From: Acidobacteriota bacterium
GTDB lineage: Bacteria > Acidobacteriota > UBA6911 > RPQK01 > CBDEGM01
Length of the DNA: 64,000 nt
Assembly (NCBI GenBank): GCA_965237715.1
Contig: CBDEGM010000003.1
Coordinates: forward strand, 1,746,375-1,810,374
Direction: 5' to 3'
Made by a program: the position numbers and the translations under genes
Shown here: positions 3,914-63,788 of the stretch, in pieces
How positions within the stretch are numbered: the stretch's first letter is position 1
Layout: each line of letters begins with the position of its first letter
The notes under the pieces: model-generated
Seen by the model: the letters and a program-made list of their open reading frames with translations, nothing else
The model's database searches: none
Told to the model about the DNA's origin: nothing

Positions 3914-3922
3914 TGGGAACTA

Positions 3923-4657: not shown

Positions 4658-4666
4658 TGCTGCACC

Positions 4667-46230: not shown

Positions 46231-47058
46231 TTAGATACCAGCATGCACGACTCCTTCCAATTGTTGCGCCATTAGGATCATCTTCGCGGGCGGGCCTTGG
46301 AAGACGATGCCCGCTTTCTCAAGTTTCATCTCGTCCAGGTAGCGCCATCCTTCAAACACGAGTTTGGTTCCCTCCCTTTTGAGAAATGCCTCGACGAAGC
46401 CCAGTGACTCGCCTTGCCGGGTGGCCTGAGCGAAGCGGCCCCACTCTGTGGACAGCAATTCTTCTGGATACCAGACCTCCGGGTTGCATGGAAATCCATT
46501 GATCATCTCCGCATGCGTCGGTTTGCAGATCCGAGTGATGTTCCTGGGACCCAACGCGGCATCCAATTTGACCACGACATCCCGCACCGTGGGGGATCCC
46601 TCGTGCAGCAGCTTAATTTGATACTGGTGGAAGGCTTCGTTATATTCCGCCTTCCGTTCGCTGTAATCGGGCGGCAGTTCCCGATGCCGACCGAGGTTTA
46701 GCGTCGCCTGCCCCGCCGCCTTACCGATGCGGTTTGCCGTCAAATCCCCCAACACTCCGTCCTGATAGGCGAGTTCGGCCTTGGTGCGGCTCTGATCATC
46801 CCACTTCATGAACAGCTCGCCGAGGTCGTGGCCCCAGGCCTCTTTTCGCGGAATGGCTCTCGGCCCCTTTTTGAGGTACACTTTCAGCAGCAGTTCCATG
46901 GTTTCATGCGCGGCGGTGTAGGCGGCGCTGATGAATCCCAGGTTGTACGGTGGGTACATATCCTGGAGATGTGATGCGGACAGTACTGCCGCCGCGTCTA
47001 GTTTGCTAGTGGCGTAAGCAAATGCTGCCGTATTACTAACTCCACCCGGATCACTCAT
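46231..47058 (-). CDS. Hypothetical 275-aa protein with a possible N-terminal HEPN-like motif (RKEAWGH)
   Basis: Rx5H motif in a helical N-terminal region; otherwise no recognisable family. Confidence 0.3.
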   Translation of the reverse strand: MSDPGGVSNTAAFAYATSKLDAAAVLSASHLQDMYPPYNLGFISAAYTAAHETMELLLKVYLKKGPRAIPRKEAWGHDLGELFMKWDDQSRTKAELAYQDGVLGDLTANRIGKAAGQATLNLGRHRELPPDYSERKAEYNEAFHQYQIKLLHEGSPTVRDVVVKLDAALGPRNITRICKPTHAEMINGFPCNPEVWYPEELLSTEWGRFAQATRQGESLGFVEAFLKREGTKLVFEGWRYLDEMKLEKAGIVFQGPPAKMILMAQQLEGVVHAGI

Positions 47059-47185: not shown

Positions 47186-47274
47186 GTACTGTCAAGTTAA
47201 CCGATTTGGTGTCTAATCAGCGCCTCGGCCACTCCCTAAGTTGTTGATTCTACATTCGACCGCCGACCGTTTCC
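47186..47274. mobile_element. MITE copy e (variant 2), 3'-truncated by insertion of IS481-like copy 1
   Basis: Identical to copy d up to ...CCGACCGTTTCC, then the IS IRL. Confidence 0.55.
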
Positions 47275-48691
47275 CGTAAGGTCAAAATATTCAGCCGACC
47301 CACAAGTCTCTATTGTGCAAAAAGTTGTAACCGTCACGGCAAACAGAAGTCAGCCTTGGTTGAGCCCCAATGTTTTCCCCCTTTGCGTCTGAGCACTTGA
47401 CGTGAGCATCTAATCAACCATGAACTTCGTGCTCAGGCCCTGGCAGCAGCTGCTCCTGATCTTGGCCGGTTGGATCAACAGAGACCAGCAGGACGCGATC
47501 GAGTATCTTTTGACTGAGAATCAGGTACTCAGAGAAAAGCTCGGCAAGGGCCGCATTCTGCTCAACGACGGCCAGCGTCGACGCTTGGCCGTCAAGGGCA
47601 AGGTGCTGGGCCGAAAAAGCCTCGGCAAACTGGCCAAGATCGTCAGGCCCGACACGCTTCTGCGCTGGCATCGAGAGCTTATCGCTCGCAAGTGGGATCA
47701 CTCAGACAAGAGGCAATCCGTTGGCCGGCCACGCATTCGACAACAGATTGTGGACTTGGCTCTGCGCATGGCTCAGGAGAATCCTAGCTGGGGCTATGAC
47801 CGTATCCAGGGTGCTTTAGCCAACCTGGGCTTCCACATTTCTGACACCACGGTTGGCAACATTCTCAAAGCCCACGGCATCGAGCCAGCTCCAGAGCGCG
47901 AGAGCCGCACGGCCTGGCGTACCTTCCTTGCTGCTCACTGGGATTCGATCGCAGCCGCCGACTTTACGACCGTTGAGGTCTGGACTCGGTCAGGACTGGT
48001 CACGTTCTACGTCCTTGTGGTGATGCATCTAAAGACGCGGCGCATTGAAATCGCGGGTGCGACGCCTCACCCCAACTCCGAATGGATGCAGCAAGCCGGA
48101 AGGAACCTGACCGGCTGTGTCGACGGCTTTTTCCGCAGCTCGGCCCACGTCATCCTTGACCGTGACACGAAGCACTTGCCGTTGCGTCAGATCTTGAAGT
48201 CCAGCGACATCGAGGCGGTAGTCTTACCTCCCAAGAGTCCTAATCTCAATGCTCATCTGGAACGCTTCATGCGCTCCCTGAAATCTGAATGTCTCAACCG
48301 TATGATCTTCTTTGGTGAAGCGTCATTGCGTCGGGCCTTGAGAGAGTTCGGAGAGCACTTTCACCACGAACGGAATCATCAGGGACTCGCGAACCGAATC
48401 ATTGATGCGGGAGATGAAGTTGGTCGCAAGGACGGCGAATTAAGTTGCCGTCCCAGGCTCGGTGGCTTGCTTCGATACTACTATCGAGACGCTGCTTGAA
48501 TTCGGATACACTCCATAAGACTGGGGAGAAGGTCGAGTCAGCACCGCTGTGCCGGAGCGACGACCTCACACCGGGAGCCCGTTTCCAAAAGCTGGTTTCT
48601 CAACGGAAATCGCCTGAGATTCCGATGCTCGCACCCCATGAGCCCTTCTATTCTAAGGATCCGCTGCCCGACCGAATATTTTTACCTTACG
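47275..48691 (+). mobile_element. IS481-like IS copy 1 (1417 bp), imperfect 25-bp IRs CGTAAGGT(C/A)AAAATATTC(A/G)G(C/T)CG
   Basis: Ends defined by comparing five full copies. Confidence 0.85.
47420..48499 (+). CDS. IS481-like rve-type DDE transposase (359 aa)
   Basis: HTH N-terminus, integrase core with ...SPNLNAHLERFMRSLKSE. Confidence 0.85.
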   Translation: MNFVLRPWQQLLLILAGWINRDQQDAIEYLLTENQVLREKLGKGRILLNDGQRRRLAVKGKVLGRKSLGKLAKIVRPDTLLRWHRELIARKWDHSDKRQSVGRPRIRQQIVDLALRMAQENPSWGYDRIQGALANLGFHISDTTVGNILKAHGIEPAPERESRTAWRTFLAAHWDSIAAADFTTVEVWTRSGLVTFYVLVVMHLKTRRIEIAGATPHPNSEWMQQAGRNLTGCVDGFFRSSAHVILDRDTKHLPLRQILKSSDIEAVVLPPKSPNLNAHLERFMRSLKSECLNRMIFFGEASLRRALREFGEHFHHERNHQGLANRIIDAGDEVGRKDGELSCRPRLGGLLRYYYRDAA

Positions 48692-48806
48692 ATGAGTGTT
48701 GAACTCATCAGCATCTTGACCGAAGTGTGGTCACGCTGTAGTGTCTGATGGGGTGTGCGTTGGCGCATGGTAGTAGAAACGATCTGAGTCCCAGGAGGAC
48801 TTAATC

Positions 48807-49040
48807 ATGGAACTTGCTTTGCGTGAGGCGAAAGCACGTCTTTCCGAGCTCGTCGTCGCCGCTCCGAACGGCGAACCGGCCGTCGAGTTCGTGCGCTGCC
48901 ATGGACGCGGTGGAATCGACTTCGGCAAGCTGGAGGCAATGCGTCGGCGCCTCGGGATCGAGGGAGACGGAGAGAGGTGGCCGAAGGAACTTAACGATCC
49001 TGCCCTCAGCCGCCGCGTGCTCGGACTCGACGACGAGTAG
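48807..49040 (+). CDS. Phd/YefM-type antitoxin
   Basis: MELALREAKARLSELV..GEP N-terminus typical of Phd/VapB antitoxins. Confidence 0.45.
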   Translation: MELALREAKARLSELVVAAPNGEPAVEFVRCHGRGGIDFGKLEAMRRRLGIEGDGERWPKELNDPALSRRVLGLDDE

Positions 49041-49061
49041 GTGGGCAAACCATGCGCATTC

Positions 49062-49088
49062 TTCTCGATACGTCCTATCTCTATGACC
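49062..49088 (+). pseudogene. vapC-like PIN toxin start (MRILLDTSYL) destroyed by IS6 element 3
   Basis: PIN N-terminal motif M.ILLDTS, then the IS6 IR. Confidence 0.4.
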
Positions 49089-49893
49089 GGCATTGTCACG
49101 TTAAGTGATCTAACCGCGACCTGGATTCTAGTGTAGCCTTTTGGGATGGACACCATCTCCTTCAAACGTCACCGCTTTCCACCGGAAATCATTCGACGCG
49201 CCGTTTGGCTCTATGCCAGGTTCACTCTGAGCTATCGGGATGTGGAGGATCTTCTTGCGGAGCGAGGTCTGGATATTTCCCACGAGAGCGTACGGCGCTG
49301 GTTCCTCAAGTTTGGTGCGCCGATTGCCCGAAACCTGCGCCACACGCGACCCATTCCCAACGGCTATTGGCATCTTGATGAGAGGGTCATCGTGATTCGC
49401 GGACAGCGTTATTGGTTATGGCGCGCGGTCGACAATGAAGGCGAGGTCCTGGATTTCCTCGTGCAATCGAAGCGGAACGCCCAAGCAGCGTTGAAGTTGA
49501 TGCGCAAGCTGCTGAAGAAACAAGGCTGGCCACCCACCCGGATTACAACCGATAAACTCAGGTCCTATCACGTCGCCATTCGAACCCTCGGCCTGACGGC
49601 TCAACACATCGACGATAGGCGTGCGAATCATCGTGCCGAGAATTCGCATCAGCCCGTCCGGCGTCGAGAACGAAAACAGCAGCGTTTCAAATCACCGGGT
49701 TCGGCCCAACGCTTTCTGAACATTCAATCCGCCGTTTACAACACCTTTTATGTCCAGCGGCATTTACGCAACAGATTCACGTTCAAACGATTTCGAAAAG
49801 ACGCATTCAATGTATGGGAAAGTGCGAGTGCGGCCGCCTGAAAGGGAATCCATGCGGGCCTTTGCGGCCCAACACGATTAACGTGACAATGCC
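49089..49893 (+). mobile_element. IS6-family element 3 (805 bp), IRs GGCATTGTCACGTTAA
   Basis: IRs at 49089 and 49878-49893. Confidence 0.75.
49146..49841 (+). CDS. IS6-family transposase (third distinct type)
   Basis: 231 aa; IS6 pattern. Confidence 0.85.
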   Translation: MDTISFKRHRFPPEIIRRAVWLYARFTLSYRDVEDLLAERGLDISHESVRRWFLKFGAPIARNLRHTRPIPNGYWHLDERVIVIRGQRYWLWRAVDNEGEVLDFLVQSKRNAQAALKLMRKLLKKQGWPPTRITTDKLRSYHVAIRTLGLTAQHIDDRRANHRAENSHQPVRRRERKQQRFKSPGSAQRFLNIQSAVYNTFYVQRHLRNRFTFKRFRKDAFNVWESASAAA

Positions 49894-49911
49894 CTCCCAG
49901 GTCCACCTAGA

Positions 49912-50667
49912 ATGCTCACGATTGTAGTCTCAGAAGAATGGGGCGTAGCGCGGGCCGCCGATATCGAAAAATTATTATCGGACGTCGCTTCACACATAAA
50001 TGGCCTGCTGAGAACGCCATGGGCCGGAGAGGTTCATGTAAGATCCGCGCCGCCTCGGGATCCAACTCCCAGGACTCTACTCCGTTCTTCGAAAACCGGC
50101 CCAATCGTTATTCAACTTAACTGCAAGGACCGTCGTTGGGCTCAGTATGCATACCAGTTTGCACATGAATTCTGTCATGTTCTATCCGGTTATGAGGTCT
50201 TAGAAGGCAATCCGAATAATTGGTTTCATGAGACGATCTGCGAACTTGCGTCGGTGTTCACACTTCGTCGAATGGCATCGCAGTGGCCCACGCATCCCCC
50301 CTACCCGGATGGGGCAGATTACTCGAAGCATTTGCTGGAATACGCTACGGAGCGGCAGAAGCGTGAAGAGGTCCAGTTGCCTATAGGCACCACTCCTCCC
50401 GATTGGCTATTGTCTCACGAATCTGGGTTACGTAAAGACCGATATCAAAGAGATAAGAACGATTTGGCGGCATACGCTCTTTTGCCAATTTTCGAGGAGT
50501 TGCCTGCTGGATGGAACGCCATCCGCAAATTCCCGAGTTCCTCGGGAGAACTCAAATATTACCTGTCTGACTGGGCATCGGCTGCCGCCCCGGATGACGT
50601 GCCGTTCGTGGTCCGTTTGGCAGATATGCTCGGACCTGCCATTGGCTCTGATACAGAATCCCGGTGA
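49912..50667 (+). CDS. Hypothetical HExxH-motif protein (possible small zinc metallopeptidase, ImmA/IrrE-like)
   Basis: YQFAHEFCHVL. Confidence 0.35.
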   Translation: MLTIVVSEEWGVARAADIEKLLSDVASHINGLLRTPWAGEVHVRSAPPRDPTPRTLLRSSKTGPIVIQLNCKDRRWAQYAYQFAHEFCHVLSGYEVLEGNPNNWFHETICELASVFTLRRMASQWPTHPPYPDGADYSKHLLEYATERQKREEVQLPIGTTPPDWLLSHESGLRKDRYQRDKNDLAAYALLPIFEELPAGWNAIRKFPSSSGELKYYLSDWASAAAPDDVPFVVRLADMLGPAIGSDTESR

Positions 50668-50705
50668 TCAGCGCCCAACACCTGGGCCGCCTTCTGATCA
50701 ACGCC

Positions 50706-51950
50706 GTCTGCTCCTGATCTTGGCCGGTTGGATCAACAGAGACCAGCAGGACGCGATCGAGTATCTTTTGACTGAGAATCAGGTACTCAGAGAAAAGCTC
50801 GGCAAGCGCCGCATTCTGCTCAACGGCGACCAGCGTCGACGCTTGGCCGTCAAGGGCAAGGTGCTGGGCCGAAAAAGCCTCGGCAAACTGGCCAAGATCG
50901 TCAGGCCCGACACGCTTCTGCGCTGGCATCGAGAGCTTATCGCTCGCAAGTGGGATCACTCAGACAAGAGGCAATCCGTTGGCCGGCCACGCATTCGACA
51001 CAGATTGTGGACTTGGCTCTGCGCATGGCTCAGGAGAATCCTAGCTGGGGCTTATGACCGTATCCAGGGTGCTTTAGCCAACCTGGGCTTCCACATCTCT
51101 GACACCACGGTTGGCAACATTCTCAAAGCCCACGGCATCGAGCCAGCTCCAGAGCGCGAGAGCCGCACGGCCTGGCGTACCTTCCTTGCTGCTCACTGGG
51201 ATTCGATCGCAGCCGCCGACTTTACGACCGTTGAGGTCTGGACTCGGTCAGGACTGGTCACGTTCTACGTCCTTGTGGTGATGCATCTAAAGACGCGGCG
51301 CATTGAAATCGCGGGTGCGACGCCTCACCCCAACTCCGAATGGATGCAGCAAGCCGGAAGGAACCTGACCGGCTGTGTCGACGGCTTTTTCCGCAGCTCG
51401 ACCCACGTCATCCTTGACCGTGACACGAAGCACTTGCCGTTGCGTCAGATCTTGAAGTCCAGCGACATCGGGGCGGTAGTCTTACCTCCCAAGAGTCCTA
51501 ATCTCAATGCTCATCTGGAACGCTTCATGCGCTCCCTGAAATCTGAATGTCTCAACCGTATGATCTTCTTTGGTGAAGCGTCATTGCGTCGGGCCTTGAG
51601 AGAGTTCGGAGAGCACTTTCACCACGAACGGAATCATCAGGGACTCGCGAACCGAATCATTGATGCGGGAGATGAAGTTGGTCGCAAGGACGGCGAATTA
51701 AGTTGCCGTCCCAGGCTCGGTGGCTTGCTTCGATACTACTATCGAGACGCTGCTTGAATTCGGATACACTCCATAAGACCGAGGAGAAGGTCGAGTCAGC
51801 ACCGCTGTGCCGGAGCGACGACCTCACACCGGGAGCCCGTTTCCAAAAGCTGGTTTCTCAACGGAACTCGCCTGAGATTCCGATGCTCGCACGCCCATGA
51901 GCCCTTCTATCCTAAGGATCCGCTGCCCGACCGAATATTTTTACCTTACG
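50706..51950 (+). mobile_element. IS481-like copy 2, lacking about 195 bp of its 5' end, with frameshifts in the transposase
   Basis: Homology starts inside the ORF; same [18 protein letters not shown] frame-shift signature as copy 6. Confidence 0.7.
50708..51757 (+). pseudogene. Degenerate IS481-like transposase
   Basis: Two compensating indels and E-to-G changes. Confidence 0.6.
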
Positions 51951-51951
51951 C

Positions 51952-53369
51952 CGTAAGGTCAAAATATTCAGCCGACCCACAAGTCTCTATTGTGCAACAA
52001 GTTGTAACCGTCACGGCAAACAGAAGTCAGCCTTGGTTGAGCCCCAATGTTTTCCCCCTTTGCGTCTGAGCACTTGACGTGAGCATCTAATCAACCATGA
52101 ACTTCGTGCTCAGGCCCTGGCAGCTGCTGCTCCTGATCTTGGCCGGTTGGATCAACAGAGACCAGCAGGACGCGATCGAGTATCTTTTGACTGAGAATCA
52201 GGTACTCAGAGAAAAGCTCGGCAAGGGCCGCATTCTGCTCAACGGCGACCAGCGTCGACGCTTGGCCGTCAAGGGCAAGGTGCTGGGCCGAAAAAGCCTC
52301 GGCAAACTGGCCAAGATCGTCAGGCCCGACACGCTTCTGCGCTGGCATCGAGAGCTTATCGCTCGCAAGTGGGATCACTCAGACAAGAGGCAATCCGTTG
52401 GCCGGCCACGCATTCGACAACAGATTGTGGACTTGGCTCTGCGCATGGCTCAGGAGAATCCTAGCTGGGGCTATGACCGTATCCAGGGTGCTTTAGCCAA
52501 CCTGGGCTTCCACATTTCTGACACCACGGTTGGCAACATTCTCAAAGCCCACGGCATCGAGCCAGCTCCAGAGCGCGAGAGCCGCACGGCCTGGCGTACC
52601 TTCCTTGCTGCTCACTGGGATTCGATCGCAGCCGCCGACTTTACGACCGTTGAGGTCTGGACTCGGTCAGGACTGGTCACGTTCTACGTCCTTGTGGTGA
52701 TGCGTCTAAAGACGCGGCGCATTGAAATCGCGGGTGCGACGCCTCACTCCAACTCCGAATGGATGCAGCAAGCCGGAAGGAACCTGACCGGCTGTGTCGA
52801 CGGCTTTTTCCGCAGCTCGGCCCACGTCATCCTTGACCGTGACACGAAGCACTTGCCGTTGCGTCAGATCTTGAAGTCCAGCGACATCGAGGCGGTAGTC
52901 TTACCTCCCAAGAGTCCTAATCTCAATGCTCATCTGGAACGCTTCATGCGCTCCCTGAAATCTGAATGTCTCAACCGTATGATCTTCTTTGGTGAAGCGT
53001 CATTGCGTCGGGCCTTGAGAGAGTCCGGAGAGCACTTTCACCACGAACGGAATCATCAGGGACTCGCGAACCGAATCATTGATGCGGGAGATGAAGTTGG
53101 TCGCAAGGACGGCGAATTAAGTTGCCGTCCCAGGCTCGGTGGCTTGCTTCGATACTACTATCGAGACGCTGCTTGAATTCGGATACACTCCATAAGACTG
53201 GGGAGAAGGTCGAGTCAGCACCGCTGTGCCGGAGCGACGACCTCACACCGGGAGCCCGTTTCCAAAAGCTGGTTTCTCAACGGAAATCGCCTGAGATTCC
53301 GATGCTCGCACGCCCATGAGCCCTTCTATCCTAAGGATCCGCTGCCCGACCGAATATTTTTACCTTACG
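51952..53369 (+). mobile_element. IS481-like copy 3, separated from copy 2 by a single base (head-to-tail tandem)
   Basis: ...ttaccttacg-c-cgtaaggtcaaaat... Confidence 0.85.
52097..53176 (+). CDS. IS481-like transposase
   Basis: 359 aa. Confidence 0.85.
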   Translation: MNFVLRPWQLLLLILAGWINRDQQDAIEYLLTENQVLREKLGKGRILLNGDQRRRLAVKGKVLGRKSLGKLAKIVRPDTLLRWHRELIARKWDHSDKRQSVGRPRIRQQIVDLALRMAQENPSWGYDRIQGALANLGFHISDTTVGNILKAHGIEPAPERESRTAWRTFLAAHWDSIAAADFTTVEVWTRSGLVTFYVLVVMRLKTRRIEIAGATPHSNSEWMQQAGRNLTGCVDGFFRSSAHVILDRDTKHLPLRQILKSSDIEAVVLPPKSPNLNAHLERFMRSLKSECLNRMIFFGEASLRRALRESGEHFHHERNHQGLANRIIDAGDEVGRKDGELSCRPRLGGLLRYYYRDAA

Positions 53370-53492
53370 GCGAGCGCGACGCGGTGTTCTCCCATGCCGA
53401 TCTGCAGCCGGCGGCGCTAGGGCGCGATCTGGGGTTGTGGGACGGTGTGACGCCGCCGGTCGCGCCGTGTACGCAATCCAGCAGATACAAAA

Positions 53493-55778
53493 CTAGGTCA
53501 GGTTCCCGACAATTTTGAGGGTTCGCTTGACGTAGTTCGAGAGTTCGATGTCATCGATCGACTCAGTCGCTGCGTTGGGATTCTCGCCATGGTGGTAGCG
53601 TTTAGTATATTCGTTCAAATCCTCAAGGTCCTCCGCGAGGGCCGAGAGCTGGTGCACCTTTCCTTCCGTCCTGATCCTGCCGATCATAGTGCCGAGGGTG
53701 TCACCGTCGGGGAACTGGCTCGGGTATAGATTTCGGCAGTAGCTTTCGAGCACGGGGCGAATTTTCTGAACGACATCGCGCGCATTGCCCCCCCTGTCGC
53801 TATAGTACCGCTGGAGCTTTTCCACGTCGAATCGGTAACGAGCCTTGACTGTCTCCTCTATATCCCATTCGGCAATCGTCGTATTAATTTCGCCGACGCG
53901 AACAAGCTGGACCGTCTTGCGGTCCGCCAGGGGGAGTTGATCCCAAACGAGTTTTAGGAAATACGGATCATGGGACAGAAGGACGACCTGCGCGCAGCGA
54001 TCGCCGCAGCGCTTAATCTCAATGGCAGTCTGTGTTCGGCGGAAGGCATCCTGACTGGTGAAAGGATCGTCCAGGACGACGGTCTTCTGGGCGCGGGATG
54101 GGTCCTGCTCAAGCTGTGCAAAGAAAAAGGCCAGTGCGAGCGTGCTGCGGTCGCCCGCACTGAGCGTGTTCTTGAAGCTAGGCTCAGATAGCAGTGTGTC
54201 CGGTTTGCCGAGGGCGACAGGCATTTCGTTAATCAGGATTTCATAGCTCGAACTTGGGATTCTACCTTTGTAGTCATGAGTCAGCCCTGAGATGCGGAAG
54301 CCCGTGTTGAACCGGTCGAGATAGCGATTGATGCTCCGCCCATACTGCGTGATAACGCTTTCGGTGTGCCCATCCAACTCTGCCTTGGCATCGGCCTTTT
54401 GGCCTTCGAGACCCCTTTTCTCGGCAAGTAAGTCTCGATAACTCTGGCAGGCCGCCCCAACAGCCTGAGTGTGGCGCGTCTTCTGCGCGTTGAGCCGGGT
54501 CAGTTCTGCCGCGACGGCCGCTACATCCGCAGCAGCAGCCTGTTCCTTCTTGGTCGCGATGAGTCCGTTTATCGTGGCGATGGATTGGTTGTAGGCTACG
54601 ATATTTCGCGTCAATATGGTAAAGGCTGATTCTGCCGTCACAAAATTATCGTCCGCGGCTAGCGTTTCGAGAGGAGCAGCTTTCTTGCGGTTCAGCAACG
54701 ATAGTGCGGCTGACCGCATATTCGCGAGGATGGCGGACAAATCAGTTTGCGAAGGAAGCCCCAGCGCTTCAAACGTGCAGTAGTCGTTCCAAAACGTGGC
54801 GACTTGGCCATTTTTTTCAAACGTGTTCCGGATTGTGGCAATGCCGGCATCGCCAAATACGTTATCGACCTGTTCGGCCAGCTTGGCAACCTCGTCTTTC
54901 AGGCTGTGGTAAGCCTCGCTGAAATAAGCCTTGTAGCTATCGATCAAGACAAGTCCGGTAAGATCCTGCCCGCAGAAAGGGCAGTCGTCATCGACGACAT
55001 AAGATAGGCCTTCCGAAAGCCACATCTCTCCGCGATCTTGCATATGGTGCGTGCGCATATGATCCGCGATCTGCCGTTCGGCATCGGCGGCGATGTCTTC
55101 GACCGTTTTGGCCAGTCCTTGTGAGAAATCGCGGGGCAGTTCTGGTAAAGAAACAGTGCTCAGGCCCTCGTGCCGGGCTATCTGGTCAGCTTTCTTTACG
55201 GCGTCTAAGTCGCCCTGCTTGGCGTTAATCCTGGCGTCAATATTGTTATCTGCTGCGAGTGTGAGAAATTCCTCGCTGGTCATGCCTTGTGGGATGTGGT
55301 TCTGGACAACTGCACGAGCCGCTTTGATCGCTCGGGATTTCTCACGGATCTGGGCATCAAGATCCTGAACACGTCGTGCAAGGACCACGCCACGGCTGCC
55401 GATTATCACCTGGTAGAGATTGCGCCGCTGCTGTGTATCGACAGCATTCCCAACATGGACGTTCTCGGCAATGTAAGTCTCATCAAAAACGGCAAGGGCG
55501 GCCATGGGCGCACTCCATGCGCCATTCTGAAAATTGGCCGGGCCGGTCTCAAGCAGGAACTCGACTTCAGGTTCATCGGGATAGCCTAAGGTCTTTCGCC
55601 CTAGGATGTAGGCGGGTTCACCCCACTGTAGGGAACGCAGGATCGCGCAGAGCGTCGTCTTGCCGCGGCCGTTCTCGGCAAAAACAAGAGTTCCCGCTTT
55701 AAACGTGACATCGTCGGCCGCAAAGCACTTTTGAAAGCGCCCTATATTCTTGATCGAGATGATCTTTTTCAGGGTCAT
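53493..55778 (-). CDS. RloC/PrrC-like AAA_13 ABC ATPase with a zinc-hook (CPFC) coiled-coil insert and a C-terminal HEPN-like region; candidate anticodon nuclease
   Basis: Walker A FAENGRGKTTL; CxxC hook DDDCPFCGQD in the coiled coil; signature LSAGDRS; Walker B VVLDDPFTSQD; H-loop LSHD; C-terminal GRIRTEGKVH; the true start is MTLKKIISIKNIGRF at 55778 (the ORF track extends it to 56111). Confidence 0.5.
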   Translation of the reverse strand: MTLKKIISIKNIGRFQKCFAADDVTFKAGTLVFAENGRGKTTLCAILRSLQWGEPAYILGRKTLGYPDEPEVEFLLETGPANFQNGAWSAPMAALAVFDETYIAENVHVGNAVDTQQRRNLYQVIIGSRGVVLARRVQDLDAQIREKSRAIKAARAVVQNHIPQGMTSEEFLTLAADNNIDARINAKQGDLDAVKKADQIARHEGLSTVSLPELPRDFSQGLAKTVEDIAADAERQIADHMRTHHMQDRGEMWLSEGLSYVVDDDCPFCGQDLTGLVLIDSYKAYFSEAYHSLKDEVAKLAEQVDNVFGDAGIATIRNTFEKNGQVATFWNDYCTFEALGLPSQTDLSAILANMRSAALSLLNRKKAAPLETLAADDNFVTAESAFTILTRNIVAYNQSIATINGLIATKKEQAAAADVAAVAAELTRLNAQKTRHTQAVGAACQSYRDLLAEKRGLEGQKADAKAELDGHTESVITQYGRSINRYLDRFNTGFRISGLTHDYKGRIPSSSYEILINEMPVALGKPDTLLSEPSFKNTLSAGDRSTLALAFFFAQLEQDPSRAQKTVVLDDPFTSQDAFRRTQTAIEIKRCGDRCAQVVLLSHDPYFLKLVWDQLPLADRKTVQLVRVGEINTTIAEWDIEETVKARYRFDVEKLQRYYSDRGGNARDVVQKIRPVLESYCRNLYPSQFPDGDTLGTMIGRIRTEGKVHQLSALAEDLEDLNEYTKRYHHGENPNAATESIDDIELSNYVKRTLKIVGNLT

Positions 55779-56048
55779 CCGCCTGCTTCCGTATACAGGG
55801 TAGCACGCAGAAACGTATAACCGTATACGGTAGAGTTCAGGCGCTTCCCGTCTCGACCAGCTCTGGTCGGAGCTTGTATTCCCCGTAGAGCACAACGTTG
55901 TCCCACTGCTGGAGTCTCCGCTTTGAGTACGGACTCCTCGAGGTGACGGAAAGACGAATCCGGTCCGGCGATAAACGAGGTGGACCCGCAGCTCGTAGGC
56001 GAGGCTCTGGAGGCTTCTGCCACTCTCGTTGCCCGACCTCGCGAATCC

Positions 56049-57466
56049 CGTAAGGTCAAAATATTCAGCCGACCCACAAGTCTCTATTGTGCAACAAGTT
56101 GTAACCGTCACGGAAAACAGAAGTCAGCCTTGGTTGAGCCCCAATGTTTTCCCCCTTTGCGTCTGAGCACTTGACGTGAGCATTTAATCAACCATGAACT
56201 TCGTGCTCAGGCCCTGGCAGCAGCAGCTCCTGATCTTGGCCGGTTGGATCAACAGAGACCAGCAGGACGCGATCGAGTATCTTTTGACTGAGAATCAGGT
56301 ACTCAGAGAAAAGCTCGGCAAGGGCCGCATTCTGCTCAACGACGGCCAGCGTCGACGCTTGGCCGTCAAGGGCAAGGTGCTGGGCCGAAAAAGCCTCGGC
56401 AAACTGGCCAAGATCGTCAGGCCCGACACGCTTCTGCGCTGGCATCGAGAGCTTATCGCTCGCAAGTGGGATCACTCAGACAAGAGGCAATCCGTTGGCC
56501 GGCCACGCATTCGACAACAGATTGTGGACTTGGCTCTGCGCATGGCTCAGGAGAATCCTAGCTTGGGCTATGACCGTATCCAGGGTGCTTTAGCCAACCT
56601 GGGCTTCCACATCTCTGACACCACGGTTGGCAACATTCTCAAAGCCCACGGCATCGAGCCAGCTCCAGAGCGCGAGAGCCGCACGGCCTGGCGCACCTTC
56701 CTTGCTGCTCACTGGGATTCGATCGCAGCCGCCGACTTTACGACCGTTGAGGTCTGGACTCGGTCAGGACTGGTCACGTTCTACGTCCTTGTGGTGATGC
56801 ATCTAAAGACGCGGCGCATTGAAATCGCGGGTGCGACGCCTCACCCCAACTCCGAATGGATGCAGCAAGCCGGAAGGAACCTGACCGGCTGTGTCGACGG
56901 CTTTTTCCGCAGCTCGGCCCACGTCATCCTTGACCGTGACACGAAGCACTTGCCGTTGCGTCAGATCTTGAAGTCCAGCGACATCGAGGCGGTAGTCTTA
57001 CCTCCCAAGAGTCCTAATCTCAATGCTCATCTGGAACGCTTCATGCGCTCCCTGAAATCTGAATGTCTCAACCGTATGATCTTCTTTGGTGAAGCGTCAT
57101 TGCGTCGGGCCTTGAGAGAGTTCGGAGAGCACTTTCACCACGAACGGAATCATCAGGGACTCGCGAACCGAATCATTGATGCGGGAGATGAAGTTGGTCG
57201 CAAGGACGGCGAATTAAGTTGCCGTCCCAGGCTCGGTGGCTTGCTTCGATACTACTATCGAGACGCTGCTTGAATTCGGATACACTCCATAAGACTGGGG
57301 AGAAGGTCGAGTCAGCACCGCTGTGCCGGAGCGACGACCTCACACCGGGAGCCCGTTTCCAAAAGCTGGTTTCTCAACGGAAATCGCCTGAGATTCCGAT
57401 GCTCGCACGCCCATGAGCCCTTCTATCCTAAGGATCCGCTGCCCGACCGAATATTTTTACCTTACG
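56049..57466 (+). mobile_element. IS481-like copy 4, inserted into an IS903-group copy
   Basis: Flanked on the right by the IS903-group transposase 3' region. Confidence 0.85.
56194..57273 (+). CDS. IS481-like transposase
   Basis: 359 aa. Confidence 0.85.
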   Translation: MNFVLRPWQQQLLILAGWINRDQQDAIEYLLTENQVLREKLGKGRILLNDGQRRRLAVKGKVLGRKSLGKLAKIVRPDTLLRWHRELIARKWDHSDKRQSVGRPRIRQQIVDLALRMAQENPSLGYDRIQGALANLGFHISDTTVGNILKAHGIEPAPERESRTAWRTFLAAHWDSIAAADFTTVEVWTRSGLVTFYVLVVMHLKTRRIEIAGATPHPNSEWMQQAGRNLTGCVDGFFRSSAHVILDRDTKHLPLRQILKSSDIEAVVLPPKSPNLNAHLERFMRSLKSECLNRMIFFGEASLRRALREFGEHFHHERNHQGLANRIIDAGDEVGRKDGELSCRPRLGGLLRYYYRDAA

Positions 57467-58074
57467 GCATCCCGCATTGCCCGCCAGGCAGGCGGGTCCA
57501 CACTTTCACTCAGCCGCGCACTGCGTCGCGGAGGGATGGTGGCGACAGCCTCCCGCTCGAGTATCGATTGATAACAGGCCCTCGTGTCATAGGCCCCGTC
57601 GCCCGAGACTTGAACGATGCGACCCGGAATCTGATCCAGCAGGGCCGGCAACAGACGACAGTCGTGGACCCGTCTCGGTGGAACCTCCACCGCCACAATC
57701 TCTTTCGTCCTCTCATCGACACCCAGGTGCAGCTTGCGCCAGGCTCTGCGCCGGCCATGTCGATGCTTTCGGACGTGCCATTCACCCGAGCCGTACACTC
57801 TCAGGCCCGTCGCATCCACAACCACGTGCCGAGGCCGACTGCTTGGGCTAACAGTCAAGAACGTCGCCAAGGAACTCTGTCGTCTACTGAGAGTGCTGTA
57901 GTCTGGAACTGGCAGATCGAGTCTGAGCAACTCCAGGAGCGAAGAAACGAAGCCCTGCGTCGACCGAAGGCTAAGATGAAACACCGACTTCAATATCAGC
58001 GCACACTGAATGGCCGTGTCGGAGTAAACCTTCGGAGCGCCGGGGCCCTTGGGCGGGTCGGCGTTCCGCCAGGC
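57467..58074 (-). mobile_element. IS903-group fragment (internal about 600 bp; both ends missing)
   Basis: Homology to 39480-39950. Confidence 0.65.
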
Positions 58075-58876
58075 ATCTCGCGGCAGGCGGACCTGGTGCG
58101 ATTGGTGCTGTCGCTCGCCGAACTCGGGTGAGGGCGGCGCGATCTGCTGCGACCCGCGCCAAGTGAGCGTGGCCGGCCGAGACGGCCGAGTTTCCAGACC
58201 ACGAGCCCGTCGCCCTTCCTCAGGGCGCGCACGCAGCTGTCGAGTCCTGGCCGATCGTCGCGTCCGCCGGACGCGAAGTCAGGGTACAGGTTGGCTGGGT
58301 CGTCGCTGCCAGCGGCCCCCACGCTACCCCTTCCCTCGCCGGGTCGGGCGGGAAGACGAAAGCGCGAGCCGCCCCGGGCACCGGTGTAACTTCGGAGACG
58401 GAGATATAGATCGGGCCGCTTCTCCAACGCGCATCCTCGTTGAAGGCCCTCGAGCCTCCTCAAAGCCCACTTCCTGGACGAACTCGTAGGCGCATTGAAC
58501 GAAGGCCTGGACATCCTCCGGTGTGCGCACGGCGCTGGCGACGATGGACTTATCCGCACAAGACAAGAATGTATCGGAGCCGAAAGTCGGCGCGGCCAGG
58601 AAGGTGAAGGGAATCAGGAAATAAGGCAGTCGATGCTTCATTGATGGGGGAAACTAACAAAATTGGAGGCCGTGTGGCAAGAGGCGCAGCTTCGAGGCTG
58701 AGACGAGTGGAGCTAACCTTGCCTCCTTCCGAAACCGAAAATCCTAACATTCACACTGGACTCGTTTCAGAGGGCAAGGGCAGATTGCTAGCTTGCCGGA
58801 TTGTCGGAACAATCCGGCTCCAGACATGTTCTCCTCCACCCAGTCACACGTGGGGTTCTCATACCCAGGGTGTAAT

Positions 58877-59788
58877 ATGGGAACCCTCATGCGTCTTGCA
58901 TCGTTCATTGCATCCGCCGTTGGTGGGATCCTGATGCTCTGTCCCATCTCCGACGTGGCGGCCCAGAGCGGGTCCGGAGGTCCACCGCGCTCCGGGTGGT
59001 ACGTCGGCGGTGGCATCGGAGCAAATTGGGCATCCGACTTGGACCAGGAGGGCTGGAACCGGGAGACGACCTGCTATCCGACAGCCGCTTGTTTCGATGC
59101 GAACCCTGTTCCCGAAATCTCCGGATACCGCTGGCGTTACGATATCGACGCTGCCTCCGGAGCCGTATTCGAGATCTCAGCCGGCCTTATTTTTGATCGC
59201 ATCCGCTTGGAGCTATCGCTCGCGCAGCGGAGGAATGGCCTTAACCAGATGTTCCGCAGCATCACCGATTACGATGGAATGCCCATGGAGGCACGGCGCG
59301 GCGGTTCGGTCGTATCCAATGGCCGGGCCTCGATCGACCATCTGATCGTGCGTACCCTTGCGTTCAATGCGTACTACGATTTTCCGGATGCGTCGTACCG
59401 CGGAATTTCTCCCTACCTGGGAGCTGGGCTGGGTCCCGCGTTCGTCGAGGTGTCCGGGGTGCATTTCTCCACCGATTACCAGGACACGTCGGGCAGCGCT
59501 CAGGCTTACGATCCTCCCCTGTCGTTCTACAACAGCCGCCAGGACGCGGACCTCTCCGATACGGTCTTGGCCGGACACCTCCACGCCGGGGCCGACTACG
59601 GCCTGAACGACAAGACATTGTTGGGACTGAAGCTGACCTACTCGATGATAAGCGACATCGAAGCCAGCGGCGGATACTCGCTTCACCCGTTTCACGAGCG
59701 GGACCCCGACTTACCCAACCACAACGCGTTCACCGGTTCGCGTTACTGGACCCTGACGCTTACCGTCAAACGCCTGTTCGGCAACTGA
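58877..59788 (+). CDS. Outer-membrane beta-barrel protein
   Basis: Signal peptide MGTLMRLASFIASAVGGILMLCPISDVAAQ; beta-strand pattern. Confidence 0.45.
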   Translation: MGTLMRLASFIASAVGGILMLCPISDVAAQSGSGGPPRSGWYVGGGIGANWASDLDQEGWNRETTCYPTAACFDANPVPEISGYRWRYDIDAASGAVFEISAGLIFDRIRLELSLAQRRNGLNQMFRSITDYDGMPMEARRGGSVVSNGRASIDHLIVRTLAFNAYYDFPDASYRGISPYLGAGLGPAFVEVSGVHFSTDYQDTSGSAQAYDPPLSFYNSRQDADLSDTVLAGHLHAGADYGLNDKTLLGLKLTYSMISDIEASGGYSLHPFHERDPDLPNHNAFTGSRYWTLTLTVKRLFGN

Positions 59789-59798
59789 GCCGGTCCAT

Positions 59799-60176
59799 TT
59801 GAGGATAGTCTTCGTGAGCACCGACTACGATGCGGTCGCAGAAGAGTATAAGCGTTCGAAGCTTGCCCCGTGGCGGACCTACCTAGAGCGGTATTCGCTG
59901 CTGAATCTGTTGGGTGAAGTGAGAGGAAAGTCGGTTCTAGACCTCGCCTGCGGGGAAGGCTTCTACTCGCGTCTCATCAGAGAGCGTGGCGCTGGCCGAG
60001 TAGTCGGTGTTGATTGGTCCAGCGGGATGATCGGCTTGGCTATTGCTGCCGAGAAAGAATCGCCTCTCGGCATCAAGTACCGGGTTGGCGATGCCATGGC
60101 ATACCAGACGGACGAACGGTTCGATATCGTTGCCGCAGCCTACCTTCTCGGTGCTTCATCAGGGAACTGTTGTTGA
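59799..60176 (+). pseudogene. Class I SAM-dependent methyltransferase, N-terminal part only
   Basis: Motif I VLDLACGEGFYS; ORF ends prematurely before the IS481-like copy. Confidence 0.4.
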
Positions 60177-60288
60177 TTGTCTCCCAGTGTCTCCTCAACT
60201 CATGATCCTACCTGGACTTCCTGGCGGTTGTCTGTCATCAAGACATGTATGAAGCGGAGCAAGGAGTCCAATCGCACTTGTCCCAACC

Positions 60289-61707
60289 CGTAAGGTCAAA
60301 ATATTCAGCCGACCCACAAGTCTCTATTGTGCAACAAGTTGTAACCGTCACGGCAAACAGAAGTCAGGCCTTGGTTGAGCCCCAATGTTTTCCCCCTTTG
60401 CGTCTGAGCACTTGACGTGAGCATCTAATCAACCATGAACTTCGTGCTCAGGCCCTGGCAGCTGCTGCTCCTGATCTTGGCCGGTTGGATCAACAGAGAC
60501 CAGCAGGACGCGATCGAGTATCTTTTGACTGAGAATCAGGTACTCAGAGAAAAGCTCGGCAAGGGCCGCATTCTGCTCAACGACGGCCAGCGTCGACGCT
60601 TGGCCGTCAAGGGCAAGGTGCTGGGCCGAAAAAGCCTCGGCAAACTGGCCAAGATCGTCAGGCCCGACACGCTTCTGCGCTGGCATCGAGAGCTTATCGC
60701 TCGCAAGTGGGATCACTCAGACAAGAGGCAATCCGTTGGCCGGCCACGCATTCGACAACAGATTGTGGACTTGGCTCTGCGCATGGCTCAGGAGAATCCT
60801 AGCTGGGGCTATGACCGTATCCAGGGTGCTTTAGCCAACCTGGGCTTCCACATCTCTGACACCACGGTTGGCAACATTCTCAAAGCCCACGGCATCGAGC
60901 CAGCTCCAGAGCGCGAGAGCCGCACGGCCTGGCGTACCTTCCTTGCTGCTCACTGGGATTCGATCGCAGCCGCCGACTTTACGACCGTTGAGGTCTGGAC
61001 TCGGTCAGGACTGGTCACGTTCTACGTCCTTGTGGTGATGCATCTAAAGACGCGGCGCATTGAAATCGCGGGTGCGACGCCTCACCCCAACTCCGAATGG
61101 ATGCAGCAAGGCGGAAGGAACCTGACCGGCTGTGTCGACGGCTTTTTCCGCAGCTCGGCCCACGTCATCCTTGACCGTGACACGAAGCACTTGCCGTTGC
61201 GTCAGATCTTGAAGTCCAGCGACATCGAGGCGGTAGTCTTACCTCCCAAGAGTCCTAATCTCAATGCTCATCTGGAACGCTTCATGCGCTCCCTGAAATC
61301 TGAATGTCTCAACCGTATGATCTTCTTTGGTGAAGCGTCATTGCGTCGGGCCTTGAGAGAGTTCGGAGAGCACTTTCACCACGAACGGAATCATCAGGGA
61401 CTCGCGAACCGAATCATTGATGCGGGAGATGAAGTTGGTCGCAAGGACGGCGAATTAAGTTGCCGTCCCAGGCTCGGTGGCTTGCTTCGATACTACTATC
61501 GAGACGCTGCTTGAATTCGGATACACTCCATAAGACTGGGGAGAAGGTCGAGTCAGCACCGCTGTGCCGGAGCGACGACCTCACACCGGGAGCCCGTTTC
61601 CAAAAGCTGGTTTCTCAACGGAAATCGCCTGAGATTCCGATGCTCGCACGCCCATGAGCCCTTCTATCCTAAGGATCCGCTGCCCGACCGAATATTTTTA
61701 CCTTACG
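60289..61707 (+). mobile_element. IS481-like copy 5 (1419 bp; 1-bp insertion in the leader)
   Basis: aagtcaggccttgg versus aagtcagccttgg. Confidence 0.85.
60435..61514 (+). CDS. IS481-like transposase
   Basis: 359 aa. Confidence 0.85.
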   Translation: MNFVLRPWQLLLLILAGWINRDQQDAIEYLLTENQVLREKLGKGRILLNDGQRRRLAVKGKVLGRKSLGKLAKIVRPDTLLRWHRELIARKWDHSDKRQSVGRPRIRQQIVDLALRMAQENPSWGYDRIQGALANLGFHISDTTVGNILKAHGIEPAPERESRTAWRTFLAAHWDSIAAADFTTVEVWTRSGLVTFYVLVVMHLKTRRIEIAGATPHPNSEWMQQGGRNLTGCVDGFFRSSAHVILDRDTKHLPLRQILKSSDIEAVVLPPKSPNLNAHLERFMRSLKSECLNRMIFFGEASLRRALREFGEHFHHERNHQGLANRIIDAGDEVGRKDGELSCRPRLGGLLRYYYRDAA

Positions 61708-62057
61708 CCGTCCTCCACAATCGAGTTCCGAATCTATGGCGAAGACGGGATCAACCCTTTGGGGGAGGGGCTTGCAAGAGTGGGAAACTTCAACCAGGTC
61801 GCTCGAACCATCCCAGAGTGGTTCGATGCGGATGGAATCAATACGGAGTTCCTCCAGGACTTTCGGGGAATCTTGCTGTTGCGATCCGAGGATGGCTCTT
61901 TGTTCGCTCCGATTGGGATACGATTTGGGAAGCGGGGAGAATCGCTCTCATCGGTTCCTGTGATCCGGGTCACAGCGGTTCCGGAGTAGCCCCGCAGTCC
62001 TGACGTCGGGAGTGGGCTCGTTTGCGGGGTAGATCAGGTGGAAAGCGAGGACTTAAA

Positions 62058-62717: not shown

Positions 62718-63788
62718 CGCATTGTTGCATAAATCGCTTCGGCACGTCCGCTTGTCTCCGATGGGCCAGGGTGCCAGCATGAGGAATGACGCCGAATCAA
62801 TACGCGTTCCGGTACCGAGTACGCAACTGGTCAGACTACAATCGGGCGCTGATCGCCAGGGGGCGTCTGACCTTTTGGTTCGATGAGGACGCCGTTGCCG
62901 CCTGGCGGAACGCCGACCCGCCCAAGGGCCCCGGCGCTCCGAAGGTTTACTCCGACACGGCCATTCAGTGTGCGCTGATATTGAAGTCGGTGTTGCATCT
63001 TAGCCTTCGGTCGACGCAGGGCTTCGTTTCTTCGCTCCTGGAGTTGCTCAGACTCGATCTGCCAGTTCCAGACTACAGCACTCTCAGTAGACGACAGAGT
63101 TCCTTGGCGACGTTCTTGACTGTTAGCCCAAGCAGTCGGCCTCGGCACGTGGTTGTGGATGCGACGGGCCTGAGAGTGTACGGCTCGGGTGAATGGCACG
63201 TCCGAAAGCATCGACATGGCCGGCGCAGAGCCTGGCGTAAGCCGCGCCTGGGTGTCGATGAGAGGACGAAAGAGATTGTGGCGGTGGAGGTTACACCGAG
63301 CCGGGTCCACGACTGTCGTCTGTTGCCGGCCCTGCTGGATCAGATTCCGGGTCGCATCGTTCAAGTCTCGGGCGACGGGGCCTATGACACGAGGGCCTGT
63401 TATCAATCGATACTCGAGCGGGAGGCTGTCGCCACCATCCCTCCGCGACGCAGTGCGCGGCTGAGTGAAAGTGTGGACCCGCCTGCCTGGCGGGCAATGC
63501 GGGATGCCCATCTACGAGAGATAAGGAGACTCGGTCGATATGAATGGCGCATCTCCAGTGGTTGCGCCAGGCAAAGCCTTGCAGAGAATGCGATGTCGAG
63601 GTTCAAGACGTTGTTTGGGCCTAAGCTGTCGGCCCGACGATTCGACAATCAACGGGTCGAGGCCATCATCAAATGTGAGGTGCTGAATCGTATGTCAAGC
63701 CGGGGCATGCCTGAGTCAGTGCGAATTCGATAGCATTCAAACAGGACTGGGATCGGTCCGTGACCCGACCGGAATTGTGCAACAACGC
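62718..63788 (+). mobile_element. IS903-group IS, full copy (plus orientation)
   Basis: IRs cattgttgcataaatcgcttcg / ggaattgtgcaacaacgc. Confidence 0.8.
62786..63733 (+). CDS. IS903-group transposase
   Basis: 315 aa. Confidence 0.85.
   Translation: MTPNQYAFRYRVRNWSDYNRALIARGRLTFWFDEDAVAAWRNADPPKGPGAPKVYSDTAIQCALILKSVLHLSLRSTQGFVSSLLELLRLDLPVPDYSTLSRRQSSLATFLTVSPSSRPRHVVVDATGLRVYGSGEWHVRKHRHGRRRAWRKPRLGVDERTKEIVAVEVTPSRVHDCRLLPALLDQIPGRIVQVSGDGAYDTRACYQSILEREAVATIPPRRSARLSESVDPPAWRAMRDAHLREIRRLGRYEWRISSGCARQSLAENAMSRFKTLFGPKLSARRFDNQRVEAIIKCEVLNRMSSRGMPESVRIR

Follow-up and report, generated by a model that had tools for sequence, protein, structure and literature searches.

We found that a gene within the 64,000-nucleotide stretch of Acidobacteriota DNA analysed here (the window) encodes what is, with a probability of about 0.8, a member of the RloC family, that is, a single-polypeptide, self-regulated anticodon nuclease serving as an abortive-infection or stress toxin. 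This reading is based on sequence comparison, structural models and analogy with known RloC proteins, and it is from that analogy that we infer tRNA cleavage by this protein. RloC orthologs were originally admitted to the family on the basis of ABC motifs, a CXXC motif and an ACNase triad (PMC2610378). All three were found in this protein, and the residues concerned were invariant in 76 genome homologs and in 74 independent representatives of 50%-identity clusters. The earlier note on this DNA had described an RloC-like layout, in which an ABC ATPase with a coiled coil and CxxC hook is followed by a HEPN-like C-terminal domain; this layout was borne out by the three features, by a full-length alignment with a protein matching a listed ortholog and by matches to HEPN structures. 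The features of the gene and its product are as follows, in window coordinates:

53493..55778, minus strand: complete RloC-family gene, 761 codons plus stop (ATG at 55778, stop codon at 53493-53495)
55425..55778, minus strand: ABC ATPase head, N-terminal lobe, residues 1-118, with Walker A FAENGRGKTTL at 55650-55682 (K40)
54309..55424, minus strand: mostly helical insert, residues 119-490, a predicted coiled-coil arm (AlphaFold secondary structure)
54972..54983, minus strand: CPFC zinc-hook motif, C266-C269, within DDDCPFCGQD (54963-54992)
53883..54308, minus strand: ABC head, C-terminal lobe, residues 491-632, with LSAGD, VVLDDPFTSQD and H603
53496..53882, minus strand: HEPN-like domain, putative anticodon nuclease, residues 633-761
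53745..53759, minus strand: R674-P-V-L-E678, Arg-x3-Glu of the ACNase triad, in predicted helix 666-684
53652..53672, minus strand: R703-x5-H709, helix 695-708, probably in a variable insert between HEPN helices 2 and 3
53589..53615, minus strand: N722-E-Y-T-K-R-Y-H729-H730, with H730 at the end of helix 712-726 or the start of the next loop

The gene is chromosomal in this genome and lies within a longer open reading frame of 872 aa (53493..56111, minus strand). Its start codon was placed at M112 of this frame (window position 55778), in agreement with the proposal of the earlier note that the true start lies about 110 codons into the frame, and three observations back this placement. First, a Shine-Dalgarno-like stretch, GGAAGCAGGCGG, precedes M112. 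Second, the best 120 homologs are mostly ~760 aa long and align from residue 1 on. Third, a separate gene call on the source contig also yielded a protein of 761 aa. The 2286 bp contain neither a frameshift nor a premature stop, and the catalytic and structural motifs are all intact; every motif that had been quoted before (FAENGRGKTTL, DDDCPFCGQD, LSAGD, VVLDD, LSHD and RTEGKVH) was recovered on translation.

The ABC motifs expected of an RloC protein, namely Walker A, the signature, Walker B with the D-loop, and the H-loop, are all present, with the signature LSAGD at 54150-54164, Walker B VVLDD at 54066-54080 and H603 of the LSHD H-loop at 53970-53972. Of the 74 representatives, 73 have K40, and all 74 have S540, D543, D570, D571 and H603. 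The coiled-coil insert with a CXXC motif that is typical of RloC is present as well; the packing of the arm and the binding of zinc are predicted from sequence and model, and AlphaFold confidence is low at residues 244-262, beside the zinc-hook apex. Both hook cysteines are kept in 78/78 homologs and in 74/74 representatives, and CPFCxQ also occurs in distant plasmid homologs and in the Rhodoferax RloC ortholog.

Database searches were consistent with this assignment and gave matches well outside what chance would produce. Pfam AAA_13, a profile against which the earlier note had suggested a check, matched residues 26-751 with E=1.8e-30 and covered model positions 15-706 of 713. The PADLOC system PDC-S06 was matched with E=4e-73 (best HMM PDLC04895, residues 3-690); this candidate defence system consists of one gene and appears to span a broad AAA_13/RloC-like group, and its name is a computational label for which a literature search gave no described mechanism. 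BLASTP aligned residues 3-757 with residues 2-767 of a 770-aa plasmid protein of Rhodoferax ferrireducens T118 (E=6e-109, 33% identity), which, judged by organism and length and with a putative accession mapping, matches entry 39 (YP_515976, 770 aa) of the RloC ortholog table. In addition, many close homologs bear the JGI name 'wobble nucleotide-excising tRNase'. By the closest homologs alone, the host would probably be placed among the alphaproteobacteria. The HEPN profile of the 760-aa 'CPFCGQ ... YHHGEN' clade matched 1216 clusters at 50% identity, and its matches were confined to C-termini, in proteins of 750-790 aa or fragments thereof. A tblastn search of phage genomes gave no match, and IMG/VR yielded 7 loci only. 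PDB sequence searches with the whole protein and with a C-domain profile returned weak matches to Rad50 ABC motifs together with noise, and no RloC or PrrC structure.

The protein is colinear with GkaRloC, AbaRloC and C. jejuni RloC (PMC2610378) from the ABC head to the C-terminal ACNase domain, and its 761 aa compare with 683-897 aa for the listed RloC orthologs. Among the proteins compared, the nearest one that matches the RloC list shares ~33% identity with it. A signature particular to the subfamily, [LI]NxY[TCS]xxYHH[GA]EN, has H729 ahead of the catalytic histidine, where RloC frequently has a serine, and part of the clade, unlike RloC, possesses the extra R703-x5-H709 pair between HEPN helices 2 and 3. 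The earlier wording, 'RloC (the PrrC family)', holds for the RloC type but not for PrrC proper. PrrC of E. coli (prr/EcoprrI) likewise combines an ABC ATPase N-domain with a C-terminal HEPN-type ACNase and has an Arg-x3-Glu...His triad (R320, E324, H356), but its E-to-H spacing is x31 rather than x51, and it consists of ~396 aa and lacks the coiled-coil/zinc-hook insert, whereas the present protein has an insert of ~370 aa bearing CPFC. PrrC always lies inside a type Ic hsd locus, which silences it, whereas the window ORFs scanned, in a region where the original flanks of the gene have been lost, included no hsd gene. The PADLOC PrrC model touched residues 539-621 only (E=0.0023), which is the region of the ABC signature and Walker B, and H295, H315, R349 and N352, all essential in PrrC, are without conserved counterparts here.

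The C-terminal region of ~130 aa that had been noticed before is real (residues 633-761) and is predicted to be HEPN-like; a model of the domain matched HEPN structures first. In this model four helices form an up-and-down bundle, and an insert separates helices 2 and 3, as in the HEPN fold. All 76 genome homologs and all 74 representatives have R674 and E678, as do distant homologs, and the counterparts of these two residues are R320/E324 in PrrC and R692/E696 in GkaRloC, as defined in PMC2610378. H730 is likewise kept in 76/76 genome homologs, 74/74 representatives and all distant homologs. The invariant histidine being H730, the triad is therefore R674-x3-E678-x51-H730, and this arrangement is also invariant in 8 distant plasmid homologs. 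The published RloC triad is Arg-x3-Glu-x36-52-His (PMC2610378), a range that includes the x51 between E678 and H730. In the predicted fold, E678 is located on helix 2 and H730 at the junction of helix 3 and the following loop, which is where the HEPN active site sits. The HEPN motif Ex3[KR] corresponds to E678-x3-R682, with R or K at position 682 in 65/76 and 69/74 homologs. Besides the triad, N722, H729 and E745 are near-invariant in the subfamily.

Another histidine, H709, was at first favoured as the equivalent of PrrC H356, because the spacings (4, 25 and 6 vs. 4, 25 and 7) and the helix positions fitted PrrC when R674/E678/R703/H709 were compared with R320/E324/R349/H356. This candidate was dropped since H709 is variable: it is retained in 63/76 close homologs and in 27/74 broader representatives, and it is absent from the Arcobacter, Erwinia, Psychrobacter, Lactococcus and Rhodoferax homologs. 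The Rx5H string (GRIRTEGKVH) that the earlier note took for the HEPN motif is thus present in the protein, but it varies among clades and is not the catalytic motif. There is also no conserved arginine 4-6 residues ahead of H730; R or K occurs anywhere at positions 725-727 in only 52/78 homologs, and at 726/727 R or K is confined to part of the family. The place of the R703-x5-H709 helix is the one from which an 'alternative' catalytic histidine comes in HEPN domains of the AF0298 and AbiV types.

The immediate surroundings of the gene consist of insertion sequences (IS), as follows:

51950..53372, plus strand: IS481-like copy, downstream flank, ending 120 bp past the stop codon
53373..56046, minus strand: inter-IS segment of 2.67 kb, 98% identical to an IS-free metagenomic contig (L081, positions 222-2900)
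56047..57469, plus strand: IS481-like copy, upstream flank, beginning 268 bp upstream of the start codon

Five copies of this 1.42-kb IS were mapped. Its transposase has 359 aa, and the best NCBIfam match is IS481 at 75 bits; because this score is below the cut-off of 224, 'IS481-like' is a best guess only. The copies on both sides of the gene, which the earlier note had also reported, share the same orientation, and any target-site duplications are masked because the copies are tandem. Homology to L081 ends exactly at the IS ends, and the flanks that this contig possesses beyond those points were sought in the window and are absent. The two direct IS copies have replaced the original flanks of rloC. 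A comparison of the 268 bp upstream of the gene with the interrupted IS5 element showed that they are not its tail. The adjoining resolvase is a remnant of 43 aa, and an Avs2 defence gene lies 9 kb from rloC in an IS-riddled region of defence and mobile genes.

This setting raises the possibility that the gene is an inert passenger here, intact in sequence and silenced or decaying after the IS-mediated loss of its flanks and promoter. The proximity of the IS copies, the missing L081 flanks and the resolvase remnant agree with such a scenario. A sigma-70-like site was looked for ahead of the start, within the retained 268 bp, and not found, and the IS insertion at that distance may have removed the native promoter. 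In addition, dN/dS relative to the 98% identical relative is 0.54, a value derived from 39 changes only and compatible with selection or with none. However, the reading frame and the motifs are intact, the Shine-Dalgarno-like sequence is kept, and the upstream 268 bp are 97% conserved (259/268) in comparison with the IS-free relative, to which the ORF is also 97% identical. IS ends often supply outward promoters, which further argues against a silent gene. RloC genes are also reportedly weakly expressed by design (PMC2610378). We regard an inert passenger as unlikely.

A second alternative retains the RloC architecture and assigns the HEPN RNase another target (mRNA, rRNA or other tRNAs, or a single cut) or a trigger other than DNA breaks. 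HEPN RNases vary widely in substrate, GkaRloC and AbaRloC prefer different tRNAs, and the identity of the subfamily to the protein matching the RloC list is low. The subfamily also lacks equivalents of PrrC H295/H315 and has N722, H729 and E745 as invariant residues of its own. On the other hand, the three residues that are essential by mutagenesis in both RloC and PrrC (PMC2610378) are invariant here, and the protein is colinear with RloC throughout, zinc hook included; we regard another target or trigger as quite improbable. If the subfamily had a modified active site, with H709 or H729 as a second general acid/base, this could underlie two successive wobble-excising cuts or some other specificity.

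In other genomes, we searched 80 loci and found no conserved neighbour or partner, whether R-M, antitoxin or nuclease. The adjacent partner for which the earlier note had suggested looking, for example a type I R-M system, did not emerge: HsdM is found in 6/80 loci and a type IIG R-M in 4/80. The neighbours among the 80 loci and the plasmids include resolvase, integrase, ArdC-like, HsdM, type IIG R-M, RepA, TraG and ParA genes, and 39 plasmid records carry homologs. RloC orthologs are likewise solitary and rarely R-M-linked, and transposase, resolvase, integrase and ArdC genes abound in their flanks; the same solitary, laterally mobile character was found here across the 80 loci and 39 plasmid records. 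A resolvase lies within 10 kb in 12/80 loci and overlaps the rloC start in 4. On plasmids, pairs in which resolvase and rloC are translationally coupled could serve as a mobile cassette for addiction or defence. We consider very unlikely a joint reading that combines a modified active site in the subfamily with, as a separate matter, resolvase-rloC pairs as a mobile cassette.

The last alternative is that the protein is a Rad50/SMC-like DNA-binding ATPase that helps to maintain plasmids or mobile elements, for example together with adjacent resolvase or partition genes, or else a DNA-targeting defence protein of the Lamassu kind in which the helical C-terminal domain binds without catalysing. 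Foldseek searches with the full-length model matched SMC/Rad50 heads with their coiled coil, and Rad50/SbcC/SMC and Lamassu LmuB were the best full-length structural matches; in these proteins the ABC head is likewise split by a long coiled coil, Rad50 has a CxxC zinc hook like the CPFC here, and the PADLOC LmuB model gave E=3e-15. The gene also often lies beside resolvase, ParA, RepA or TrfA genes on plasmids, with a resolvase overlapping its start in several loci, and the canonical Rx4-6H is not conserved. However, sequence similarity to these proteins is limited to the ABC motifs, they are without a C-terminal HEPN domain, and they work with partner nucleases or kleisins (Mre11/SbcD, LmuA/LmuC), whereas Mre11/SbcD is absent from the window and from the recurrent neighbours of the 80 loci, no LmuA or LmuC gene was found in the window or the 80 loci, and most loci have no nearby resolvase. 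The strict invariance of R674, E678 and H730 in 150 homologs is hard to explain if the module is passive, which makes this alternative highly improbable. The matches were thus not confined to SbcC/Rad50 or SMC with no nuclease-like C-terminal domain, the outcome that the earlier note had named as speaking against RloC.

For the anticodon nuclease reading, a mechanism can be proposed by analogy with RloC of Geobacillus kaustophilus and Acinetobacter baylyi (PMC2610378, PMC3458546, PMC3874168). Protomers would dimerise via the zinc hook and the ATPase heads, and the resting dimer would hold the HEPN RNase silent. DNA ends or breaks, arising from phage infection or genotoxic stress, would boost ATP hydrolysis, and this hydrolysis would turn the RNase on. 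The RNase would then cleave tRNA anticodon loops and halt translation; in RloC, two successive cuts would excise the wobble nucleotide. Silencing from outside, for example by a type I R-M enzyme, would not be required. Self-regulation of this kind fits both the lack of a conserved partner and the way the gene travels alone on plasmids, integrative elements and resolvase modules. The antiviral role of RloC is itself largely a proposal in these RloC papers (PMC2610378, PMC3458546, PMC3874168).

No new question is opened by this gene, as RloC became known in 2008 and existing annotations already call close homologs wobble nucleotide-excising tRNases. It adds to the family an intact gene from an uncultured bacterium, the activity of whose product we infer. 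The residues to mutate would be R674, E678 and H730 rather than the histidine of the Rx5H string. For the family, the analysis illustrates that the 760-aa 'CPFCGQ ... YHHGEN' clade is large and uniform in architecture, has no obligatory partner and is carried on plasmids and on resolvase/integrase modules.

The ORF that encloses the rloC-like gene (53493..56111, minus strand) encodes 872 aa. Homologs are about 760 aa long, and their alignment with the window protein begins at the methionine of codon 112; an independent gene call on the source contig also returned 761 aa. Both observations back the earlier note, which had placed the true start about 110 codons into the ORF. A GGAAGCAGGCGG stretch precedes this start codon at 55778. 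All of the motifs quoted in that note were recovered in the translation.

Motifs of the window protein, from its translation
55650-55682, minus strand: Walker A FAENGRGKTTL, with K40
54963-54992, minus strand: zinc hook DDDCPFCGQD, with C266 and C269
54150-54164, minus strand: signature LSAGD, residues 539-543
54066-54080, minus strand: Walker B VVLDD, residues 567-571
53970-53972, minus strand: H603 of the H-loop LSHD
53652-53672, minus strand: 'Rx5H' string RTEGKVH, R703-H709

Pfam AAA_13 matched residues 26-751 (E=1.8e-30; model positions 15-706 of 713) and the PADLOC candidate defence system PDC-S06 gave E=4e-73, signals far exceeding chance. The full-length AlphaFold model (pLDDT 79) revealed an ABC head split by a helical insert of ~370 aa, and its best matches among solved structures were SMC and Rad50 heads with coiled coil and Lamassu LmuB, all of which lack the C-terminal domain of the window protein. 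The model of that domain matched Csm6 (9.4), Csx1-Crn2 (8.5), sacsin HEPN (8.5) and the SO_3166 HepN toxin (8.2), followed by more HEPN toxins, LsoA, RnlA, Las1 and MtlR. Because the modelled C-terminal domain matches HEPN structures, the outcome that would have refuted the RloC reading of the earlier note, namely Rad50 or SMC matches only and a C-terminal region unlike a nuclease, did not occur. The HEPN profile found 1216 cluster representatives, in which the domain was always the C-terminus of 750-790-aa proteins or fragments thereof.

The RloC nuclease motif was first defined as Arg-x3-Glu-x36-52-His, often with a Ser before the His; residues R692/E696/H737 of G. kaustophilus RloC and R320/E324/H356 of PrrC have been confirmed (PMC2610378). 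In the close family alignment, H709 and H730 both appeared invariant, and H709 was initially preferred as the catalytic histidine because its spacing resembles that of PrrC. Wider sampling led us to reject it. R674, E678 and H730 were each present in all 76 species-genome homologs (identity, 39-68%) and in all 74 full-length proteins that represent 50%-identity clusters (identity, 32-47%), whereas H709 was found in 63/76 and 27/74, respectively. In the second sample, C266, C269, S540, D543, D570, D571 and H603 were also conserved in 74/74. Among eight plasmid homologs (13-37% identity in the C-terminal region), only R674, E678 and H730 were invariant C-terminally. The predicted triad is therefore R674-x3-E678-x51-H730, with a spacing inside the published x36-52 range; the Rx5H string reported earlier exists at R703-H709, but not as a conserved catalytic motif. 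A canonical arginine 4-6 residues ahead of H730 is not conserved in the family, whose signature is [LI]NxY[TCS]xxYHH[GA]EN. In the model, helix 666-684 carries E678, and H730 comes after helix 712-726, where the loop to helix 743-757 starts; a superfamily survey locates the HEPN active site where these two residues fall. Helix 695-708, with R703 and H709, is best read as the variable element inserted between HEPN helices 2 and 3.

The supplementary table of the RloC paper lists 72 orthologs, admitted for their ABC ATPase, CXXC and ACNase (anticodon nuclease) triad motifs (PMC2610378), and the window protein possesses all three. Entry 39, from Rhodoferax ferrireducens T118, is 770 aa long and, judging from organism and length, is probably the 770-aa AAA_13 plasmid protein of that strain. 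The latter aligns end to end with the window protein (E=6e-109, 33% identity) and shares AENGRGK, CPFCGQ, LSxGD, LDDP, LSHD, R-x3-E and LNxYxxR[YF]HH, but lacks R703 and H709. Many close homologs already bear the JGI name 'wobble nucleotide-excising tRNase'. Together with the HEPN-like domain, these results illustrate that the RloC reading is right once the catalytic histidine is corrected. The layout is not that of PrrC proper, given the coiled-coil/hook insert and the missing hsd linkage; the PADLOC PrrC model matches only the ABC signature region.

The gene does lie between IS copies, as had been proposed. Five copies of one 1.42-kb IS, each on the plus strand, fall within 14 kb (47273-61710); its 359-aa transposase has an rve_3 domain, with IS481 as best NCBIfam match (75 bits vs a cut-off of 224).

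Flanking IS481-like copies
51950-53372, plus strand: ends 120 bp past the rloC-like stop codon
56047-57469, plus strand: begins 268 bp ahead of the rloC-like start codon

Between these two copies lie 2.67 kb (53373-56046) that match L081, an IS-free metagenomic contig whose rloC-like relative is 97% identical, at 98% identity over its positions 222-2900. This homology breaks off exactly at both IS ends, and none of the flanks of L081 was found anywhere in the window, so the original surroundings of the gene have been replaced, through either a rearrangement mediated by the IS or the capture of the gene between two of its copies. The target-site duplications that would tell these apart are masked by tandem IS copies. 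The window ORF is uninterrupted and shows 14 synonymous and 25 non-synonymous differences from L081 (dN/dS 0.54, on too few changes for judging selection in this lineage). Downstream in L081 is a convergent gene (3210-5120, minus strand), absent from the window, for an SMC/ABC-like ATPase of 636+ aa whose Walker B reads FVADD and whose H-loop reads LSHH; L081 1-111 is an IS5-family transposase fragment.

From 1 to 15 kb, the window holds ordinary genes of the chromosome (glyQS, ddl, psd, murJ and xerC/D-like), adjoined from ~19 kb on by an IS graveyard. At its edge, a 722-aa ORF (16191-18359, plus strand) had no Pfam, NCBIfam or PADLOC match.

Other features of the window
19608-20891, minus strand: Mutator-family transposase
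27847-28548 (minus strand), 49146-49841: two IS6 copies
116-1063, 39105-40052 (minus strand), 62786-63733: three full IS5 copies
29531-30283 and 57457-57993, both minus strand: two partial IS5 copies, one interrupted by the IS481-like copy at 57469
30530-31519, minus strand: further truncated IS481-like copy
32844-34112, plus strand: group II intron reverse transcriptase/maturase (Pfam RVT_1 E=2.4e-42, plus GIIM)
40203-44702, minus strand: full-length Avs2 (AVAST type 2 STAND NTPase), 1499 aa, 9 kb from the rloC-like gene; PADLOC PDLC02164 E=0, 1705 bits; NCBIfam Avs2 940.6 bits, slightly below the 1000-bit cut-off
45500-45991 and 46231-47058, minus strand: small genes upstream of Avs2; the product of the first (163 aa) weakly resembles MtlR/MltR (HEPN-related), and that of the second (275 aa) matches no family
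~50611-51950: second IS481-like copy, 5'-truncated, abutting the third head to tail and fused in frame to a 251-aa ORF (49912-50667)
58173-58301, minus strand: degraded 43-aa resolvase (serine-recombinase) remnant within ORF 57996-58559, in a 69% GC patch

The resolvase remnant is upstream of the rloC-like gene on the same strand, with IS insertions between them. Elsewhere, the genome scan found relatives in 439 species, and the adjacent partner that the earlier note had suggested seeking did not emerge, as no neighbour was conserved among 80 loci. The commonest neighbour family was a serine recombinase (12/80), which in four of the 12 loci overlaps the rloC-like start by 25-58 nt, and on Xanthomonas citri plasmids by 26 nt; this overlapping gene is intact, at 200 aa, in several relatives and in the X. 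citri plasmids. Next came integrases, ArdC-like genes, HsdM (6/80), type IIG R-M, RepA, TraG, ParA and metal-efflux genes. The tabulated flanks of RloC orthologs are alike: transposases, resolvases, integrases, ArdC and occasional R-M (PMC2610378). Homologs were present on 39 plasmid records and on only 7 IMG/VR contigs, and none was found in the phage genomes searched. Distant AAA_13 homologs lie beside a P-loop NTPase and a TIR-domain protein on a Cupriavidus oxalaticus plasmid (L088, 5531-7835) and beside ToxN/AbiQ and an HsdS gene on Lactococcus pSRQ900 (L086, 2943-3461), the pSRQ900 homolog being short (509 aa) and lacking the coiled-coil/hook insert.

The subfamily conserves the extra residues H729, N722 and E745, with R703 and H709 in part of the clade. 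That these modify the active site is improbable, and it is equally doubtful that, separately, the resolvase-rloC pairs constitute a mobile cassette.

The window gene is a further member of a known family, and its close homologs are already so annotated. The analysis shows how the protein is built, that residues of its ATPase motifs, hook and triad are invariant, that a HEPN fold is predicted and that the gene is distributed as a solitary, mobile one. Beyond this, a mechanism may be proposed by analogy with work on G. kaustophilus and A. baylyi RloC (PMC2610378, PMC3458546, PMC3874168). A dimer formed through the zinc hook and the ATPase heads would hold the RNase off; DNA ends would stimulate ATP hydrolysis, which would switch on the HEPN domain to cut tRNA anticodon loops, in RloC by excising the wobble nucleotide, and translation would stop during phage attack or genotoxic stress. 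The solitary mobile distribution fits the internal switch reported for RloC, which would enable the gene to move without an external silencer.
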